DNA of 64,000 nucleotides. Origin: a virus. The notes under the pieces are model-generated. The model did not search any database. It was not told the origin of the DNA and was given only the letters and a program-made list of their open reading frames with translations. Shown in pieces: positions 1 to 7,848 of this stretch. The first letter of the stretch is position 1, and each line of letters begins with the position of its first letter. The DNA lies in the IMG/VR virus record IMGVR_UViG_3300025889_017816, positions 1-64,000 of that record. One strand, given 5' to 3'. The translations under genes and the position numbers were made by a program.

Positions 1-57
1 TAAAAGTTTTTCCTCTTGTAGGACGCTGTGGTATCATATCCTCAAATGTAATGTAAC

Positions 58-501
58 TCATCTTTCCCACCAAAATTCAAACCAAGTTTTATCAACACTC
101 CTATCTATTGAATCAGCAAAATAATCAGGCTTTATGTCTTGGTCCACATTATAAATCCAACAAGCAATTTTAAGGTCGGTGGAATTATATTCTCCTAGAT
201 TGAAAGATATTTCATGCATTGTAACACCGCTGTCAATGATATCATCAACCAATAAAACTTTTTTCCCAGCAAACAAATCATTAGGTAAATTCCCTAGGTC
301 TCTATCTTTAAAATCACGCAGGGACCATTTAACAACATCCATAGGAACGTTCAGTTTGTGGGACAGTGCTACAGCCAAAGGCAACCCGCCACGAGCAATC
401 CCATATATTTTATGAAATTGTATATTAGATTTTCTGATATCGGAAGCAATAAGATCAACGGCAGTAGCAAACTTTAAAAAATTCATGTAATAGGTTTTCA
501 T
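58..501 (-). CDS. Type I phosphoribosyltransferase (xanthine/guanine PRT, Gpt-like)
   Basis: GIARGG motif and PRPP-binding loop VLLVDDIIDSGVT; C-terminal FWWE resembles Gpt FPW. Confidence 0.85.
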   Translation of the reverse strand: MKTYYMNFLKFATAVDLIASDIRKSNIQFHKIYGIARGGLPLAVALSHKLNVPMDVVKWSLRDFKDRDLGNLPNDLFAGKKVLLVDDIIDSGVTMHEISFNLGEYNSTDLKIACWIYNVDQDIKPDYFADSIDRSVDKTWFEFWWER

Positions 502-803
502 TTTACTACTTTAATACCTGAAGAAGGTACAAGCAAACCACGACCAGTTAATCTGTGATATTCATTCTTAATATCAGCAGCAGGCTCAAATACATGAAGA
601 ATATGAGAGGTTTCAAAAGAAAATTCCTTATCGTTTGAAAAGGAAAGATAAGGAGCTAGACCTATCCCATACGAGCCGTTTCCCGTGGGTGCAATCATAA
701 TATTGAATGGTTGGGCCAAAGTTAAGGTGTTGGTGTTCTCTAATTTCTCTATGCGCTCACCAATCAAATTTTCACCAGCAATAGTTTTAATGCCTATAAT
801 CAT
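498..803 (-). CDS. Conserved T4-like phage hypothetical protein (small beta-rich, possibly Sm-like)
   Basis: K..GE.LIG N-terminus; typical position downstream of hsp20; stop overlaps the PRT start (ATGA). Confidence 0.6.
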   Translation of the reverse strand: MIIGIKTIAGENLIGERIEKLENTNTLTLAQPFNIMIAPTGNGSYGIGLAPYLSFSNDKEFSFETSHILHVFEPAADIKNEYHRLTGRGLLVPSSGIKVVK

Positions 804-843
804 AATAAACTCAACTGTAAGGGTGTTAGGAGGTACTACTTAA

Positions 844-1269
844 TTACGAAATTTCAAACTTCTTAGGCTTCTTATCTTCAGGAATAATGCGTCTTAAATC
901 AATATTAAGAACACCATCCTGTAATGAAGCTCCCTCTACAATAACATCTTCTGCTAAGGTCCACTTACGAGTAAAGGCACGCTTAGCCAAGCCACGGTGA
1001 ATATATTGAGGCTCGTCTTCGGCCTTCTCACCTGAACCTGAAATAGAAAGGACTCCTTCGGCTAACTCCACCTCTAGATCGCTGCGCTTGAATCCAGCCA
1101 CAGCAATTTCGATGGTCCAATTCTCAGGATCATGCTTGATGATGTTATAAGGTGGGTAATTTGTGGCTTCATTGGCAGTTTGAATCTGTGATAAACGATC
1201 AAACCAACCATCAAAGCCAATTGCCCATGGGTTATGTGTTGAACTAAAAGTAAAGGTACGAGTATTCAT
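844..1269 (-). CDS. hsp20: Small heat-shock protein Hsp20 (IbpA-like)
   Basis: NYPPYNI, EIAVAGF, YIHRGLAKRAFTR, GVL motifs; AGGAGG RBS. Confidence 0.95.
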   Translation of the reverse strand: MNTRTFTFSSTHNPWAIGFDGWFDRLSQIQTANEATNYPPYNIIKHDPENWTIEIAVAGFKRSDLEVELAEGVLSISGSGEKAEDEPQYIHRGLAKRAFTRKWTLAEDVIVEGASLQDGVLNIDLRRIIPEDKKPKKFEIS

Positions 1270-1320
1270 AATTCCTCCTTAGAGCGAATGTGTTAGTGAT
1301 ACCCTTTCGGCGTATCGTTG
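1270..1320 (-). promoter_or_regulatory. Structured hsp20 5' leader, ROSE-like RNA thermometer candidate
   Basis: mRNA: GAUAC(G)CC-GAAA-GGGUAUC hairpin, then UUCGCU just before the AAGGAGG Shine-Dalgarno. Confidence 0.5.
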
Positions 1321-1326
1321 AGTTAA

Positions 1327-1355
1327 AATATAACTCCTAACACCCCTACAGTCAA
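1327..1355 (-). promoter_or_regulatory. Sigma70-type promoter for hsp20
   Basis: TTGACT-17 nt-TATATT. Confidence 0.75.
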
Positions 1356-1361
1356 GCTCTT

Positions 1362-1781
1362 TTACAGCTTTTTACCAATATTATATTTGGTAACTAAGTT
1401 CCAATCTTTCTTTTCTCCGAAAGACAAAACCTTAATTTGTGATAATGGTGCAGTATCTTCACAATCATCTGGATTAAGAATCTCTACTAATCCCCAATCT
1501 TCTAAAAGATGTGCTATTGTGTTTCTACGGTGCAAATCATTATCAGATAAATCTGCTCTTTTACCATCCAAAGCAAATAATTCTTTGAAATGTACAATGA
1601 AATATCGGCCTTGCTTGTGTAAAATATGGCAGCTTTGGAATAGAGTTTGTTCTTTCTTAGAAGCAACCCCTATGCGCGTTAAAGTCTCTCTGACTTTTAG
1701 GAAATCATCTGGATTAACAAGTATTATTTCTACTGGTTTGTATCCAGGAATTCCAGGTATATGTATTAAGTCATGTGCCAT
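1362..1781 (-). CDS. regA: Translational repressor RegA
   Basis: PDDFLKVRETLTRIG, QSCHILHKQGRYFIVHFKELF; probable start ATG at 1781. Confidence 0.97.
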   Translation of the reverse strand: MAHDLIHIPGIPGYKPVEIILVNPDDFLKVRETLTRIGVASKKEQTLFQSCHILHKQGRYFIVHFKELFALDGKRADLSDNDLHRRNTIAHLLEDWGLVEILNPDDCEDTAPLSQIKVLSFGEKKDWNLVTKYNIGKKL

Positions 1782-2220
1782 TACTAATTCCACCTATGTT
1801 CAATCTTTTTTTAATATTGTCAATGTTTTCAGGAGTCAAAATTTTCAAAGCCTGGAGTCCCTTTTCCGTATTATAATTATAATACTTTTTAACTATTTCC
1901 AAATCTTCGATCTTTTCGCTTTTAATCCATTTATTAAAACGCTTTTTGCCTCTGACAATATTTATAAGATAGTGGAATTGTAATTTCTTATCTAAGTGAG
2001 TTCTGCTATTCATTTCATTAGCTTGTATTACTGTATCACTACCAAAACTAAGTGCTCGATTCACAATATAAGGATTATAATATTTCTCACCATACTCATC
2101 CTCACACAAATCTTCTTTAGTGTAATGAATAGCATTAACATAATCAAAAGGAGAAGGCTTAGAAATTTTATGTTCTTCCTCTTGTATTTCTATAATTTCT
2201 TCACCGTCAAGATTAATCAT
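1771..2220 (-). CDS. gp62: Clamp loader small subunit
   Basis: SPFDYVNAI, YNPYIVNRALS, ANEMN; lies between gp44 and regA. Confidence 0.92.
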   Translation of the reverse strand: MINLDGEEIIEIQEEEHKISKPSPFDYVNAIHYTKEDLCEDEYGEKYYNPYIVNRALSFGSDTVIQANEMNSRTHLDKKLQFHYLINIVRGKKRFNKWIKSEKIEDLEIVKKYYNYNTEKGLQALKILTPENIDNIKKRLNIGGISNGT

Positions 2221-3161
2221 TTGAATTCACACACAGCCATGATTTCTGTCAAACAAGCAACCAAATTAATCTCAGCATCTGCAACAAAGGCAGCTTTGTA
2301 TTGATAATCAGCCAACAAAAGAATCAACTGAGGTACCTGTACCACTTCGTTAGATAGGTTATCATAAAGAAGCCTAAACAAAACTGCAGGATCATTATCT
2401 AGGTTATTAGCAACCCAGGTTCTCATTTTCTTAAAATCTTTTTCTCTAAGAGAAGATAAAAGATTTTTGATATTATCCTCGGAGATATTTACAAGAATTC
2501 CACTATCAATTTTGCCTGATACGGAATATCTTTGTAGTTCATTCAAAACTCTACGATAATCTGGAAAATGCTTGTTCAATAATTCAGCAACAACCTTTTC
2601 TTGATATTCTATATTTTCATTGTCCAGAATTTCTGTAACTCTCTTGAAGAACTTTGCTGCAATCTTAGGACGTTCTTCTTTTGTAATTCTAAAATCAATA
2701 ACTGTGGTTCTAGAATGCAAAGGAGAAATAATCCTGTTCTTGAAGTTACAAGTGAAAATAAACCTACAATTTTTACTGAACTCCTCAATAAAACCACGAA
2801 GTGCAGGTTGTGTACTATTAGGATTTAAATAATCGGCCTCATCTAAGATTACAATCTTTACCTTACCCGTGAAACTAACTGTACTAGCAAAGTCTTTAAT
2901 CTTTGTTCTAAGAACATCAATACCCGATTCTTCGGAACCGTTAATAATAATATAGTCACAACCAATTTCTTCACATAAAGCTCTAGCAATAGTGGTCTTA
3001 CCAGTACCTGCTGTACCGGACAGTAACAGATTTGGAACATTATCTTGTTCTACAAATTCTTGGAATGTATTCTTCAATTCTTCGGGAAGAATACAATCTT
3101 TAATTTTCTTAGGACGATATGCTTCTACCCACAAGAATTGTCCTTCTGTTTTTGTTACCAT
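2217..3161 (-). CDS. gp44: Clamp loader large subunit (RFC-like AAA+)
   Basis: LWVEAYRP, GTAGTGKTT, ILDEAD, SR motifs. Confidence 0.97.
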   Translation of the reverse strand: MVTKTEGQFLWVEAYRPKKIKDCILPEELKNTFQEFVEQDNVPNLLLSGTAGTGKTTIARALCEEIGCDYIIINGSEESGIDVLRTKIKDFASTVSFTGKVKIVILDEADYLNPNSTQPALRGFIEEFSKNCRFIFTCNFKNRIISPLHSRTTVIDFRITKEERPKIAAKFFKRVTEILDNENIEYQEKVVAELLNKHFPDYRRVLNELQRYSVSGKIDSGILVNISEDNIKNLLSSLREKDFKKMRTWVANNLDNDPAVLFRLLYDNLSNEVVQVPQLILLLADYQYKAAFVADAEINLVACLTEIMAVCEFK

Positions 3162-3163
3162 AT

Positions 3164-3844
3164 TTAAATCCTAGAGCTAGCATCTGCTGCAATCAAATAA
3201 GTGAGATCACATCCCTCACATTCAAAGAAGAAAACAAGAACCTTTCCCCCACGACCAATAGCATTAGCTATATGAACTTTATATGTCTTAGGAATAACCT
3301 TAAAACTATCAATGGACAGCTTAACATCAAAACTCATATCTGAAACACCTAGCTTCTTTCTAAAAGAATGTGAAGTAGGATTTCTAGGATCATTGAGTAT
3401 AAGTGTTACCTCACCATTCTCAGCAGTAACACTCATCATTGTTGCATTGACAATGCCAGCAATCTTAGTAATAGAAGTAATATCGTTCGATTCGAGTGTG
3501 AACGAATACATTTCTTCTAACTCAGGAGGAGTTTCAAGAGGAGCACTTACCAGACTTTCATCTGCATAAAAATACTCCATCTCTCCCCCATCCTCTGTCT
3601 TAATAAGAAGACTCTTATCACCAAACTCAATTTCAGCACCACTAGAAACTGAAATAAGGGACAAAAGCTGATTAAGATCATAGATAGCAAACTGTGCAGG
3701 GAAGTTTTCTGAAACAATTGCTCTTGCCTGAATGCTATTCACAGCATTTTTTGTTGCCATTTTATTACCAGGCTTTACCAACAGATTGCTGCTAATCTGT
3801 GAAAAACTTTGCAAGAGTGAAACGGTTTCCGAACTAATCTTCAT
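3164..3844 (-). CDS. gp45: Sliding clamp
   Basis: MKIS.ET..LL..F..I, FAIYDLNQLL; upstream of gp44. Confidence 0.93.
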   Translation of the reverse strand: MKISSETVSLLQSFSQISSNLLVKPGNKMATKNAVNSIQARAIVSENFPAQFAIYDLNQLLSLISVSSGAEIEFGDKSLLIKTEDGGEMEYFYADESLVSAPLETPPELEEMYSFTLESNDITSITKIAGIVNATMMSVTAENGEVTLILNDPRNPTSHSFRKKLGVSDMSFDVKLSIDSFKVIPKTYKVHIANAIGRGGKVLVFFFECEGCDLTYLIAADASSRI

Positions 3845-3858
3845 AATATATCCTCCGG

Positions 3859-4167
3859 TTAAAATTGAATGTAGTCGCCTATTTCACTATCAGGCTCAAC
3901 ATAAAAGTCATGTACATGAAGTAACATAACAGCATAGTGTAAAATTTTCAAGATGTCTTTACGATTGAATCCATCCTTTTTCCCATAACGTTGGGCATAC
4001 TTCATGATGTTACCAACCGTAAAACCAACACCATGACCAGTGTCAAAAATAAATTCTGAGGCCTGGAACTTTCTACGGGAATAATGCTCACCATAGGTAG
4101 AGTCAATATATTTCTTGAGTTCCTGTAAAATCTTATCCTCTGAATAACGATAATCAATCTTCTTCAT
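3859..4167 (-). CDS. DUF3310-like conserved phage protein
   Basis: YIDSTYGEHYS, GF..GNIMKYAQRYGKK, DILKILHYA. Confidence 0.7.
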   Translation of the reverse strand: MKKIDYRYSEDKILQELKKYIDSTYGEHYSRRKFQASEFIFDTGHGVGFTVGNIMKYAQRYGKKDGFNRKDILKILHYAVMLLHVHDFYVEPDSEIGDYIQF

Positions 4168-4516
4168 TTATTGTGTCCCGTCCTTCTGCATGAATATCAC
4201 ACAGAGCCATAATATGTTCGCCTGATCTTAAGGAGCCTGAGGCTCCACAAACTTCACAAATATAACGACTTCTTTTTGCAATGTCAATTATTACTTTATC
4301 CACTTCTTCGTTAATTATATTTGTGTATATTCTTAATATACCCCATCTTTCTTTTACCTGTAAAATTTTTACTGGTGGGAATGTATCCTTTATAGCATCA
4401 AAAACTTCATGAAGCAAAGGAGCCCACCCTTCGCCTACTGAGCGAAGGGCGAGATCCAATGTATAACCTTCGTAATTTACTTCCTGTGGATTAACATCAG
4501 AAGGGCAAAGATTCAT
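4154..4516 (-). CDS. Conserved phage protein (QVKEKFG-like family) with a C-terminal Cys/His metal-binding motif
   Basis: GW..L, QVKERWGILRIY, CEVCG...CDIH; start reassigned to ATG 4516 behind GGAGGAGGAG. Confidence 0.65.
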   Translation of the reverse strand: MNLCPSDVNPQEVNYEGYTLDLALRSVGEGWAPLLHEVFDAIKDTFPPVKILQVKERWGILRIYTNIINEEVDKVIIDIAKRSRYICEVCGASGSLRSGEHIMALCDIHAEGRDTINEED

Positions 4517-5648
4517 ACTCCTCCTCCGCGGTAGGCTCACCAACCTCTTCACCAACCTCTTCACCTGCATCAATCTTGGTATACAGGTCAATGAAACTAT
4601 TCTTAGTTTCAGTATTGAACCTGGACACACACAAGGTAACAGCCTTGATCCTATCACCAAACATTGCAAAGGCATTCACCACGTGCTCAAGTCTGCGGGT
4701 TGAGATAACCTCATCCACACCACCATCAAGATAGGTCTTACGAATAATCTCGGACCAAATTGTGAGCTTGTCAGCAAAGTCCTCGTCTACGCGGTCCACA
4801 CGCTCCATCTTCTTAATAAGAATCTTCTTTTCGATTGAAGGAGTAGGATATTCCTGCTCGACGGTGATGGCGAAACGCTCAAGGAAGGCATCGTCAAGAA
4901 TCTGTGCTGTAATAAACTTACCGTCCTCGGTTCCCTGTCCCTTGGTATTTGCTGTAGCAATGATATTGAAACCAGGAGCAGGGTAGATGGTCTCGCCTGT
5001 CTTCTTATTAAAGTAAGGCTTACCTTCAAGGATAGCCTGTAGGCACATAAGCTTGTTACTGCCACGATCCACCTCATCCAGAATCAGAATAGCACCACGC
5101 TTCATGGCGATAGACACAGGCCCTTCACGATAAACCACATTCCCGTCTACCAGAGTGTTACCACCAATGAGGTCATCCTCGTCAGTTTCAATACTGATAT
5201 TAACACGGATACACTCACGATTCAGAGAAGCACAAACCTGCTCTACCATTGTAGTCTTACCATTACCTGAAAGACCCGTTACGAAAACTGGGTAGAAAGA
5301 ATTACTTCCCACGATGGTCTTAAGGTCCTTGTAAAATCCGAAAGGAACAAATGTAGAATCCTTAGACGGTACCAGGTCCTTAATCTCAACATGGAGCTTT
5401 GGTTGAGACAGAAGCATCTGGGACTGCATACCAAGATGCGCCTGAGGCTGCGCGGCTGCTGGAGCAATTGTAACAGGCTCATATCTTTCCAACGAATACA
5501 TACCACGCCTAATCTTATGATTAGGGTCGTTTAGGATTACGTTTGGGTTGACTCCCAAGGACCTAGCCTGATCCTGAATTTCGGGCCTGGTAAATTCAGA
5601 CTTACCAGTCGAACGAAGAGCATCCTGCAAACGCTGATAGTTGGACAT
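4497..5648 (-). CDS. MoxR/CobS-like AAA+ ATPase
   Basis: GLSGNGKT, DEDDLIGG, LDEVD, ATANTKGQG, AFLERF, ISTRRL. Confidence 0.92.
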   Translation of the reverse strand: MSNYQRLQDALRSTGKSEFTRPEIQDQARSLGVNPNVILNDPNHKIRRGMYSLERYEPVTIAPAAAQPQAHLGMQSQMLLSQPKLHVEIKDLVPSKDSTFVPFGFYKDLKTIVGSNSFYPVFVTGLSGNGKTTMVEQVCASLNRECIRVNISIETDEDDLIGGNTLVDGNVVYREGPVSIAMKRGAILILDEVDRGSNKLMCLQAILEGKPYFNKKTGETIYPAPGFNIIATANTKGQGTEDGKFITAQILDDAFLERFAITVEQEYPTPSIEKKILIKKMERVDRVDEDFADKLTIWSEIIRKTYLDGGVDEVISTRRLEHVVNAFAMFGDRIKAVTLCVSRFNTETKNSFIDLYTKIDAGEEVGEEVGEPTAEEEYESLPF

Positions 5649-5682
5649 TTTGCCTCCTATTGTAGGGATTTATTATATATTA

Positions 5683-5729
5683 AATATAATCAAAAATTAC
5701 TAGGTTGTCAAGTCATGTAAGTGCTTATT
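5683..5729 (-). promoter_or_regulatory. Sigma70-type early promoter with conserved upstream element
   Basis: TTGACA-17 nt-TATATT; upstream AATAAGCACTTACA identical to the copy at 7916-7929. Confidence 0.8.
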
Positions 5730-7848
5730 ATGAAATAACTTCCACAAACCTGTTGAGAAAAACCCTAGAAATATTCTTATTATTCTGGGTCTTTTTAAAG
5801 GCTCGGAGAAGGGTTCCCTTACCCTGAGTCTTATAACCACCCAAGACTTCTTCCAAATCCTCTGTAGCAATCTTCATATTCCTACCCGAAATAAGATAAA
5901 AGACATCATATCCTCGGACAGGGATTTCCGCATACTTGTGAACCTTGGCCTGTTCCACCTTAGAGGAAACATCATCATAACTAAAATTCTCGCCTTTACG
6001 ATACCAATAGTCCTTAATGTTATTGGGGGTGAGATCACTGGTAATAAAGATACCAACTACATTGGACTTCGTAATCCTCTTATAAAGATCCAAAAGTGCA
6101 ACAGTAGTTTCCCGTTTGTAATGTGCAAAACTATTTTGATTATCAGCCTCAAAAACTACAGGAAACGATAGACGACCATCGGAGTTCTGTGCAGGGGGAT
6201 AAAGAGTGCTAGTAGAATCCCCATCCGTAAGAATTACGGTGTTGAGAATTTCCACTTTATTGGTGTTCTTAAAATCTTCTGCAATCCAACGAAGAACAGA
6301 AATAGTTTCATCCAGAGGAGTGCTGCCTAGGCGCATGATTTCAGGTATTTTACCTGACTCAAAATAATTATTAATCTTTTCACCATACCAAAGCAACTTC
6401 TTCACAGCATTATTATGTTCATTCATCCGCATGTTGGAAGAGAAAAGTTCCAACAACTTAAATCCATGATCTGCGATTCTGTATGCAGATAGGTCCTTGT
6501 CATTTTTAATGTAAAGATTATTCTCCCGTTCTGCTCTATTAGGGCCATTAGGATTAAGATAATTATGAGAATCACTAAACCCGTATACGGTGAACGGAAT
6601 ATTGATTTTCTTACAAAACATAACCAGAGCAATCGTTTGATGAATAGTTGCTTTCATATTAGAGGTCATGGAAGAAGACATATCCAACATCATTATCATC
6701 CCATGGTTTTTTCCGTTTGGAATTTCCGTTGACTGGAGAAATAAATCCTCTGTAAGTTTGTAACCCCAAAGTTTATCTACGTTCAACTTACCCGTCTTGG
6801 AAATTCTTGCCTTTGCAAACTGCTTTGCAGATTGCTTAAGAGTAAATTCCTTGACCATATAATCAATATACTTACGATTATTGGACATGAATTCATGGTA
6901 ATAATTTTCTGCAGCCTCCTTGTCAGCATTAAAATATGGCCAATACTCATAGACTTCGGAATGTCTGCGAATAAAATTCTTGGGGTCGAGCTTAGGCCAT
7001 TTTGCATAAGTGGGTGCTGTACCAGTATTATCAATTAAGGACTTTATAGAATTTTCTTCCAAAGAATCCTGAGTAATTGAACCACCTTCGGCCTCTGCAG
7101 AGGAAATTATCTTTTCCTGAAGTTCCTCCGATGCCTGCTCCAAACGATCTGCAAGATCCTCTCTACCATTTTCACGGAGAATAGCGATAGCCTGTTCCTT
7201 AGAAATAGGTTCAGTAGAATTTGCACTATCCTCATCAAAAGAAAGTTCAGTAAAGTCCCCGAAAGCCTCAGTAATATCTTCTCCCTCCTTCTTATGGAGT
7301 TCGAAGAGTTCCAAAGACAATTCCACAACATCATCCCATTCGGTTACATCCCGGATCCTATCTACAATAATTTGTTCCTCCTCCGAGAAACGAATAGCAG
7401 ATCGGGAACCAATTTTGAAGTAACAATTGATCCTATCAATAAGAGGGAGGAAATTCATCTCCTCGACCGAAACACCAAAAAAGTTACGGTCAACCAGCTT
7501 AGTGTAACCCGAATACATAGGCTTACGAATACCAGGATACTTTTCCTTCACTAGCTTTTCAATGCGTGCGTCCTCAACAATATTGAGGCAAGCCTTGAAA
7601 GAAGAACCCAATTCCTGAACCAGCTCTACCCAGCCTTCGGCTGGAGTAAAAAGAGAGTGTCCAATCTCGTGTCCAATGAGAAGGTCATAAACATCAGAAT
7701 CCATCTCCTTCCACAAGGGAAGGGTTAGAACCCGATTTTTGACATCAAAGGATGCAGTAGTAACATTACGATGCTCGATCCTAATATTCTCCGAAGCTAG
7801 TAGCTTACCAAGATTAGTCTTGGATGCATCTAAAACATTAATGGACAT
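5728..7848 (-). CDS. CobT-like protein: N-terminal HExxH metallopeptidase plus C-terminal VWA (MIDAS) domain
   Basis: HEIGHSLFTP, NIVEDARIE; DMSSSM, STPL, LTDGD. Confidence 0.88.
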   Translation of the reverse strand: MSINVLDASKTNLGKLLASENIRIEHRNVTTASFDVKNRVLTLPLWKEMDSDVYDLLIGHEIGHSLFTPAEGWVELVQELGSSFKACLNIVEDARIEKLVKEKYPGIRKPMYSGYTKLVDRNFFGVSVEEMNFLPLIDRINCYFKIGSRSAIRFSEEEQIIVDRIRDVTEWDDVVELSLELFELHKKEGEDITEAFGDFTELSFDEDSANSTEPISKEQAIAILRENGREDLADRLEQASEELQEKIISSAEAEGGSITQDSLEENSIKSLIDNTGTAPTYAKWPKLDPKNFIRRHSEVYEYWPYFNADKEAAENYYHEFMSNNRKYIDYMVKEFTLKQSAKQFAKARISKTGKLNVDKLWGYKLTEDLFLQSTEIPNGKNHGMIMMLDMSSSMTSNMKATIHQTIALVMFCKKINIPFTVYGFSDSHNYLNPNGPNRAERENNLYIKNDKDLSAYRIADHGFKLLELFSSNMRMNEHNNAVKKLLWYGEKINNYFESGKIPEIMRLGSTPLDETISVLRWIAEDFKNTNKVEILNTVILTDGDSTSTLYPPAQNSDGRLSFPVVFEADNQNSFAHYKRETTVALLDLYKRITKSNVVGIFITSDLTPNNIKDYWYRKGENFSYDDVSSKVEQAKVHKYAEIPVRGYDVFYLISGRNMKIATEDLEEVLGGYKTQGKGTLLRAFKKTQNNKNISRVFLNRFVEVIS

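Follow-up and report, generated by a model that had tools for sequence, protein, structure and literature searches.

A gene-spanning RNA helix conserved around the hsp20 gene in a clade of phages: a possible promoter-dependent switch

Introduction

Why should a phage keep, on either side of a complete gene, two sequences that are able to pair with one another in the messenger RNA (mRNA)? The question is raised by the first lines of a 64,000-nucleotide (nt) stretch of viral DNA (positions 1 to 64,000 of IMG/VR virus record IMGVR_UViG_3300025889_017816; hereafter the window), which opens a 119-kb record whose completeness is put at 67%. Every gene in the first 4 kb of the window lies on the minus strand, and among these is hsp20, which stands between regA and a gene for a protein of 101 amino acids (aa), here termed p101. 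A preliminary description of this DNA, made from the letters and without database searches, had proposed that the flanks of hsp20 pair in the minus-strand RNA over 26 bp without a break, and that the resulting helix acts as a switch that depends upon the promoter from which a transcript begins. Comparison with relatives reveals that both flanks, or arms, are conserved throughout one clade of uncultured T4-like phages, and that their pairing is maintained by compensating changes.

The Helix

The 5' arm (1359-1334, minus strand; GAGCUUGACUGUAGGGGUGUUAGGAG) starts 2 nt past the regA stop codon, and the 3' arm (832-807, minus strand) reads CUCCUAACACCCUUACAGUUGAGUUU. The two pair across all 26 positions, through 21 Watson-Crick and 5 G-U pairs with neither mismatch nor bulge, the G-U pairs being at positions 1, 3, 6, 7 and 14 counted from the outer end. 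The five mismatches between the arms at the level of DNA fall on these G-U pairs of the minus-strand RNA and are therefore all transitions. The arms lie 501 nt apart, with the whole of hsp20 in the loop. At its inner end the 3' arm carries CCUCCU, which resembles an anti-Shine-Dalgarno (anti-SD) sequence; its outer end contains the SD-like GAG (812-810) of p101, and 3 nt separate its last base (807) from the next ATG (803-801). In all three respects, the unbroken helix enclosing hsp20, the confinement of the DNA mismatches to G-U pairs of the minus-strand RNA and the distance of 3 nt to the next AUG, the preliminary description had been accurate.

Helices of this length are not to be expected in the window by chance. 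The 22-nt core of the arms occurs at two sites only, where none is expected, and the same two are the only ones in the 119-kb record. When both strands of the window were scanned for uninterrupted helices of Watson-Crick and G-U pairs with arms within 2 kb of each other, the longest was the 26-bp helix and the runner-up had 21 bp; the same scan of ten mononucleotide shuffles of the window gave longest helices of 17-21 bp. RNAfold places the helix in both the minimum free energy and the centroid structure of a 606-nt model (780-1385, minus strand), with a z-score of -5.96 relative to 20 shuffles. A search of Rfam gave five matches at E values up to 10, all far under the gathering scores and implausible, long-range helices being outside the coverage of such models.

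Conservation and Covariation

Relatives were gathered independently of the arms, by means of the hsp20 protein, a 15-nt leader motif and, among metagenome contigs, a longer pattern of the leader. They define a clade (hsp20 at least 60% identical; 69 loci tabulated) in which the order gp62-regA-hsp20-p101 is fixed. The 65 clade loci with sufficient flank reduce to 32 unique flank pairs, 31 of which give the duplex, with energies of -37 to -49 kcal/mol, and the metagenome scan added 6 further unique flank pairs, all with the helix. Both arms are present in 37 of the 38 unique clade flank pairs, or in 37 of 37 once a single deletion contig is excluded. In the latter (L029/L123) hsp20 is fused at about residue 115 to the middle of p101, giving an open reading frame (ORF) of 200 aa; the 3' arm has been lost and the 5' arm and promoter kept. 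This fusion may be a real variant or an artefact of assembly. Every intact regA-hsp20-p101 locus of the clade retains both arms, with a helix of 24-26 bp.

Covariation in related phages was the check that the preliminary description had called for, and its outcome is favourable to pairing. In an alignment of 29 unique sequences, drawn only from the hsp20-protein and 15-nt leader-motif retrievals, standard pairs account for 96.5% of the cells of the 26-pair helix. One row (L020) was misaligned by MAFFT in the 5' arm and was retained in these counts, to the disadvantage of the structure. Six of the 26 pairs have changed on both sides, and none of 500 shuffles reaches the observed covariation score; with the partner slid by 1-3 columns as a control, 41-45% of cells are paired and 0-1 pairs are changed on both sides. 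The compensations include UUAGGAG/CUCCUAA versus UUGGGAG/CUCCCAA, for which L198 supplies a G-U intermediate, and GAC/CAG versus GAU/CAA. Pair 14 forms a series from G-C through G-U, as in the window, to A-U (L004). One base has been deleted from both arms in a matched fashion (GGGG/CCCC to GGG/CCC), and the outer pairs occur as GUAC/GUAC, GAGC/GUUU and AAAU/GUUU. RNAalifold, run without constraint, recovers the same long-range helix.

The arms are also better conserved than their surroundings. Mean pairwise identity is 0.88 in the 5' arm (0.98 over its inner 17 nt) and 0.92 in the 3' arm (0.95 over its inner 17 nt), as compared with 0.575 at the third codon positions of hsp20 and 0.58-0.74 in neighbouring non-coding stretches. 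The excess over the hsp20 third positions suggests that the arms are under selection.

Beyond the clade the picture is a different one. Distant hsp20 loci (below a cut-off of 55% identity, and in fact at 41-52%; 35 unique flank pairs) gave -15 to -36.5 kcal/mol on a first pass, as scattered pairings, and mostly have ordinary terminator hairpins 3' of hsp20. One of them, L054, reached -41 kcal/mol on refolding, and was rejected as a helix of another hsp20 clade when this proved to consist of scattered short pairings near ordinary terminators with no continuous helix. Because the distant loci show scattered pairings only, we regard the helix as restricted to one clade. The locus L040 has regA adjacent to hsp20 and is without the arms. 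About 60 extra bases lie between regA and the 5' arm in another locus (L255:3212-3368), so that the tight spacing between the regA stop codon and the helix is not universal.

RNA or DNA

The deviations from Watson-Crick pairing indicate the level at which the arms are matched. With the misaligned row removed from the alignment, G-U occupies 89 cells spread over 10 of the 26 positions, and A-C 3 cells over 2 positions. Standard pairs make up 97.4% of the cells when the transcribed (sense) strand is read, versus 85.4% on the antisense strand, and in 29 of 31 variants it is the sense duplex that has the greater stability (means of -41.0 versus -35.7 kcal/mol). The TTGA of the -35 box stands opposite TTGA of the other arm; here the DNA copies disagree in every sequence, and the RNA reads U-G and G-U. 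The preliminary description had argued from the five G-U pairs of the window for selection on RNA structure, and the wider comparison likewise points to selection acting at the level of RNA, on the transcribed strand.

One might nevertheless suppose that the arms are an inverted repeat in the DNA without a role in RNA, namely paired operators for one DNA-binding protein or a relic of promoter/stem-loop cassettes homogenised by recombination. They are indeed inverted DNA copies, one of them a promoter; T4-type phages possess repeated cassettes of promoter and stem-loop, described as PeSLs (PMC4122927); and matched changes in both copies could equally reflect co-evolution with a binding protein. 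However, the two copies are alone in the record and are inverted rather than direct, and of 28 motif-bearing loci without an hsp20 match, 26 were unrelated contexts, the other 2 being cut ends of hsp20 loci. Two positions consistently distinguish the copies (TTGA versus TCAA), precisely those which yield the U-G and G-U pairs in sense RNA, and no inverted hsp20 segment was seen among the 69 tabulated loci. Given two inverted copies only, the bias toward G-U over A-C and the fixed synteny, a DNA repeat or PeSL-like cassette seems to us very improbable. A transposon-like cassette was rejected on account of the fixed synteny, with no inversions seen in the 69 tabulated loci, and of the adjacency of regA and hsp20 without arms in L040.

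A Promoter within the 5' Arm

A sigma-70-type promoter for hsp20 is predicted at 1355-1327 (minus strand), composed of TTGACT (1355-1350), a 17-nt spacer and TATATT (1332-1327), with 10 of 12 matches to the consensus. The -35 box falls inside the 5' arm, as do 16 bases of the 17-nt spacer, which agrees with its earlier identification as -35 box and spacer. A+T-rich DNA abounds in sigma-70-type matches (here 10, with 16 expected), and the case for this promoter therefore rests on the pattern in relatives. The -10 box fits TAnnnT in 37 of 37 unique relatives, through 12 different hexamers; the -35 box fits TTGAYT in 34 of the 37, and the spacer is of 17 nt (33) or 16 nt (4). Such conservation of the -10 position has the appearance of a real box, on which the promoter is predicted. 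Elsewhere among phage hsp20 loci the equivalent leader hairpin is preceded, at the same few bases' distance, by a box that resembles a promoter (often TATAAATA), which supports a start of transcription just upstream of hairpin I (1316-1298; see below) and downstream of the 5' arm.

No terminator-like site was found between regA, hsp20 and p101. With none there and the promoter inside the arm, the proposal that the helix can exist only in transcripts reading through from regA, the entry gene into the 5' arm, is borne out as far as sequence can speak to it.

Two further candidates at this locus were set aside. A role for the helix as an intrinsic terminator is not sustained, the U-run after the 3' arm being absent in most relatives. 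On the plus strand a promoter-like site at 771-800 (TTCACC-18-TATAAT, 10/12) would direct antisense transcription into the 3' arm and hsp20; its -10 box is altered in the 99%-identical L003, and it is probably due to chance.

p101 and the Masking of Its Ribosome Site

The gene that follows the 3' arm, p101 (803-498, minus strand), belongs to PHROG 527, where its function is unassigned, and adjoins hsp20 in all clade loci (39-66% identity). Its AlphaFold2 model (pLDDT, the predicted local distance difference test score, of 84.6, from a 14-sequence alignment) gave as top Foldseek match 3by7 (E 1e-5; template modelling score of 0.88, normalised to the target), which we take to be an Sm-like protein of putative cyanophage origin. 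The product of p101 thus models as an Sm/LSm-like barrel. Its ribosome site lies within the 3' arm, the SD-like GAG being inside the helix and the AUG just outside it.

The answer which we favour, tentatively and with some doubt, is that the clade-conserved helix spanning hsp20 is a promoter-dependent switch, and that it most likely masks the ribosome site of p101 in read-through mRNA. Transcripts starting at the hsp20 promoter would carry the 3' arm only; they would lack the 5' arm, so that the helix would close only in RNA reading through from the gp44-gp62-regA block. In such read-through mRNA it would bury the GAG of p101 and block the loading of ribosomes, and in own-promoter transcripts the site would be left open. 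The helix would also tie up the CCUCCU of the 3' arm, which would otherwise be free to fold back on the SD of hsp20. The position of the hsp20 transcription start, the occurrence of read-through and all consequences for translation or decay are our inferences.

Folding predictions are consistent with masking. In 12 variants hand-picked for diversity from the 32 unique ones, the predicted unpaired fraction of the 24-nt window at the p101 start is 0.56 for short model transcripts and 0.23 for long ones, and in 12 of 12 the long transcript has the lower value. The preliminary description had left two actions open to its switch, excision of hsp20 mRNA by ribonuclease III (RNase III) or a block on downstream translation. 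The helix, the covariation and the promoter signature lend the switch as such partial support, and the predicted accessibilities favour the block on translation of the two actions.

Several points weigh against this reading. The SD of p101 is a weak one (GAG), and it is covered by the outermost pairs, where the helix is at its least regular, pair 2 being unpaired in 9 of the 29 aligned sequences. The best-conserved part of the arms is the inner, G+C-rich half, which is far from the p101 start, and masking alone does not account for identities of 0.95-0.98; we therefore take the arms to serve more than one pairing, or the binding of a protein. In most variants translation of regA ends only 0-6 nt before the helix, and the terminating ribosomes would open its outer pairs. 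The hsp20 promoter and the upstream block may act simultaneously, so that the benefit of gating is not evident. Finally, arm variants are few, and since the sequences share ancestry and the assemblies behind some contigs overlap, the cell counts given above exceed the number of independent events.

The hsp20 Leader and Stop Region

The enclosed gene, hsp20 (1269-844, minus strand; 141 aa), was identified by Pfam HSP20 (E 2.3e-16) and PHROG 432. Its 5' untranslated region (5'-UTR) holds two hairpins predicted by RNAalifold. Hairpin I (1316-1298; GAUACGCCGAAAGGGUAUC) has 7 pairs, with 100% of cells paired and 2 pairs changed on both sides, and probably forms the 5' end of the own-promoter transcript. 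Hairpin II (1289-1271; AUUCGCUC / GAGGAAU) sequesters the hsp20 SD, AAGGAGG (1280-1274); its stems are invariant or show C-G to U-G changes, and its loop is variable. Besides the covarying hairpin I and the SD-holding hairpin II the leader has an invariant ACUAACAC. The CUAACAC of the leader (1296-1290) is invariant in the 29-sequence alignment and identical to 7 nt of the 3' arm. In a fold of 1240-1372 (minus strand) it pairs with GUGUUAG of the 5' arm, and on this model it would hold the 5' arm transiently, until the 3' arm has been transcribed.

The plan of this leader (window 1270-1322, minus strand, and loci L033-L082) is common to phage hsp20 genes of 41-99% protein identity. A promoter box (often TATAAATA) comes first; there follow a hairpin at the 5' terminus (NNNNNGCC-loop-GGGNNNNN), a conserved stretch resembling AAUCUUGCUUAAU (CAUUCGCUC in the clade of the window) and lastly AAGGAG. 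Most of 53 unique leaders possess it, and Rfam gave no match to it. It may be an RNA thermometer, or else a site of self-regulation of the kind reported for IbpA.

At the other end of the gene TAATTAAGTAG (846-836, minus strand) provides stops in all three frames, conserved as TAATTAA(G/A)TA(G/A) in 37 of 37 unique relatives, and may keep ribosomes of any frame off the 3' arm. The latter begins 10-12 nt past the hsp20 stop, and from the start of the arm to the p101 ATG there are 28-29 nt in all 37.

Alternative Roles for the Helix

Instead of, or alongside, masking, the duplex might be a substrate for the host RNase III, which would cut it in read-through mRNA and so part the replication-gene message from hsp20 and p101. 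The ends of the hsp20 mRNA would then be clamped and stabilised by the G+C-rich inner half of the helix, and p101 would receive a short new leader, possibly an activating one. RNase III needs roughly two turns of double-stranded RNA, a length which this duplex attains; indeed 24-26 bp, uninterrupted in nearly all variants, is more than the hiding of a ribosome site needs. The division of the arms into an inner half that is G+C-rich and near-invariant and an outer half that is A/U- and G-U-rich and more variable fits a clamp joined to a releasable portion, and the 5'-3' UTR duplex of the Staphylococcus aureus gene icaR is described as a substrate of RNase III as well as a block on translation (PMC3868564). 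On the other hand, the 119-kb record, 67% complete, encodes no RNase III domain, and a term search of the main text of a review on post-transcriptional control in T4 gave 0 occurrences of RNase III. The sequence data do not separate cleavage from masking; on balance we think cleavage unlikely to be the principal role, though it deserves to be taken seriously.

Alternatively hsp20 itself could be the primary target of a three-part switch. In own-promoter transcripts CCUCCU would fold some 440 nt back onto the hsp20 SD and damp translation, perhaps in a heat-labile manner, and in read-through RNA the SD-mimic UUAGGAG at the inner end of the 5' arm would capture CCUCCU and free hsp20. The CCUCCU-AGGAGG pairing has a predicted probability of 0.57-0.99 in 5 of 6 short model transcripts; the exception, L026, is without it, and any CCUCC is predicted to pair with any SD, which makes the prediction a generic one. 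Anti-SD-like sequences several hundred nt downstream are reported, in a preprint on Bacillus subtilis, to repress through the ribosome site and to be normally depleted (PMC12697547), and here the element is kept (CCUCCU or CCUCCC in 28 of the 29 aligned sequences, CCUUCC in L115). Covariation cannot probe its pairing with the hsp20 SD, however, because that SD is invariant, and the local hairpin II competes for the same bases. The CUAACAC common to leader and 3' arm, with its predicted transient hold on the 5' arm, would suit such a switch, and so would the predicted accessibility of the hsp20 ribosome site, which is higher in long than in short transcripts (0.44 versus 0.34), but the difference is small. 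As the main role of the helix, control of hsp20 strikes us as improbable. We attach a similarly low likelihood to a fuller scheme, in which three partners, the 5' arm (SD mimic), the leader (CUAACAC and SD) and the 3' arm (CUAACAC, anti-SD and p101 ribosome site), would exchange pairings according to where transcription began. Read-through mRNA would then express hsp20 and silence the gene for the Sm-like protein, and own-promoter mRNA would do the opposite, or render hsp20 heat-dependent. Feedback would come from p101, annealing the arms, and possibly from RegA, in that ribosomes terminating at regA, whose stop abuts the helix, would open them.

Neighbouring Genes and the Rest of the Window

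Upstream of the helix, in order of transcription, lie a 226-aa ORF (3844-3164), gp44 (3161-2217), gp62 (2220-1771) and regA (1793-1362; Pfam Translat_reg, E 9e-47), all on the minus strand. The preliminary description had named a block of gp45, gp44, gp62 and regA; the last three hold, but the name gp45 was given to the 226-aa ORF by position only and Pfam returned no match for it. Last in transcription order is a phosphoribosyl transferase (PRT) gene (501-58, minus strand). The 101-aa and PRT genes had been named together as possible targets of a block on translation. The adjacency of p101 is general in the clade, but PRT comes after it in just two of the clade loci, namely the window and one near-identical contig. 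This rarity of PRT, like the anti-SD-like CCUCCU of the 3' arm and the Sm/LSm-like model of p101, was absent from the preliminary description.

There appears to be no near-identical phage in culture, a megablast search with positions 1-4000 having given zero matches. Distant blastn matches were to regA and gp62 only, the nearest regA DNA being that of Pelagibacter phage Mosig (74% identical), and the best hsp20 match among phage records has 44.9% identity. In one freshwater metatranscriptome run a tenth of the sampled words matched, in six contig pieces, and this has no bearing on transcripts; the sole piece identical to the window is of 202 nt inside hsp20 (936-1137), no piece spans an arm, and ends are not reported.

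Elsewhere in the window, a 383-aa ORF followed by a 706-aa ORF (4497-7848, minus strand) appear by eye to specify an AAA ATPase and a von Willebrand-type protein, a pair which presumably resembles the CobS/CobT-like pairs of marine T4-like phages. Some 23 kb at 36500-59600 are occupied by long direct repeats (up to 299 nt, 60-93% identity) of many families, which may correspond to large, repetitive structural or fibre genes.

Comparison with Known Systems

No earlier description of the helix, or of the phage hsp20 leader motif, was found in the open-access literature searched. Parts of the arrangement have precedents. The flanks of the genes in rRNA operons pair over the whole gene to form an RNase III site, much as the flanks pair around a gene here; the duplex of lambda sib retroregulation exists in transcripts from one promoter only; and in MS2 the coat-replicase long-distance interaction conceals a ribosome site by pairing with a sequence far upstream of it. 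To our knowledge none of these is a case from a double-stranded DNA phage in which the 5' arm contains a promoter and the loop a protein-coding gene.

The nearest parallel is perhaps with T4 genes e, soc, 49 and I-TevI, which are described as having promoter-dependent inhibitory hairpins at their translation starts (PMC3014915). In T4, and by our proposal here, a helix hides the ribosome site in long transcripts initiated upstream, and a promoter in the DNA of the 5' strand gives rise to transcripts that lack this strand and are translated. The T4 hairpin is, however, local, with a late promoter (TATAAATA) just upstream of the regulated gene, whereas here the arms are about 500 nt apart around a whole gene, the promoter is sigma-70-like and the start that would be masked is that of the second gene of the short transcript.

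The icaR transcript is reported to have a 5'-3' UTR duplex that loops out the coding region, a downstream pyrimidine motif of anti-SD type blocking initiation and creating the RNase III substrate (PMC3868564). It thus shares with the present locus a long-range intramolecular duplex across a coding region and an anti-SD-like motif downstream of the gene. The 5' partner in icaR is its own SD and the pairing is short, unlike the 26 bp found here, where the partner lies upstream of the promoter of the gene and is present in read-through RNA only. Anti-SD folding in B. subtilis likewise involves an element of CCUCC type which pairs with the SD from hundreds of nt downstream and lowers expression; such elements are said to be generally depleted there (PMC12697547), in contrast to the conserved element of this clade with its dedicated upstream partner. 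The PeSLs of T4-type phages (PMC4122927) also join an early-type promoter to a conserved pairing sequence bordering accessory genes, but are many-copy, local stem-loops of the same orientation that serve recombination, whereas this clade has two inverted copies pairing across a gene.

Significance

The element combines features of promoter-dependent inhibitory structures, of long-range 5'-3' pairing within an mRNA, and of processing stems that flank a gene. The cis-regulatory structures in mRNAs of double-stranded DNA phages exemplified by the T4 cases (PMC3014915) are local hairpins; this helix spans a complete gene, is naturally compensated and is tied to the choice of promoter. It brings together in one unit three genes related to RNA, namely regA, which encodes a translational repressor, hsp20, which is IbpA-like and has a conserved leader, and the gene for an Sm-like protein, and in some 560 nt offers a compact natural system in which to set long-range mRNA folding against transcription and ribosome traffic. 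If the proposal is true, the rule known from T4, that the origin of a transcript decides whether it is translated, would extend across hundreds of nucleotides and across the borders of genes.

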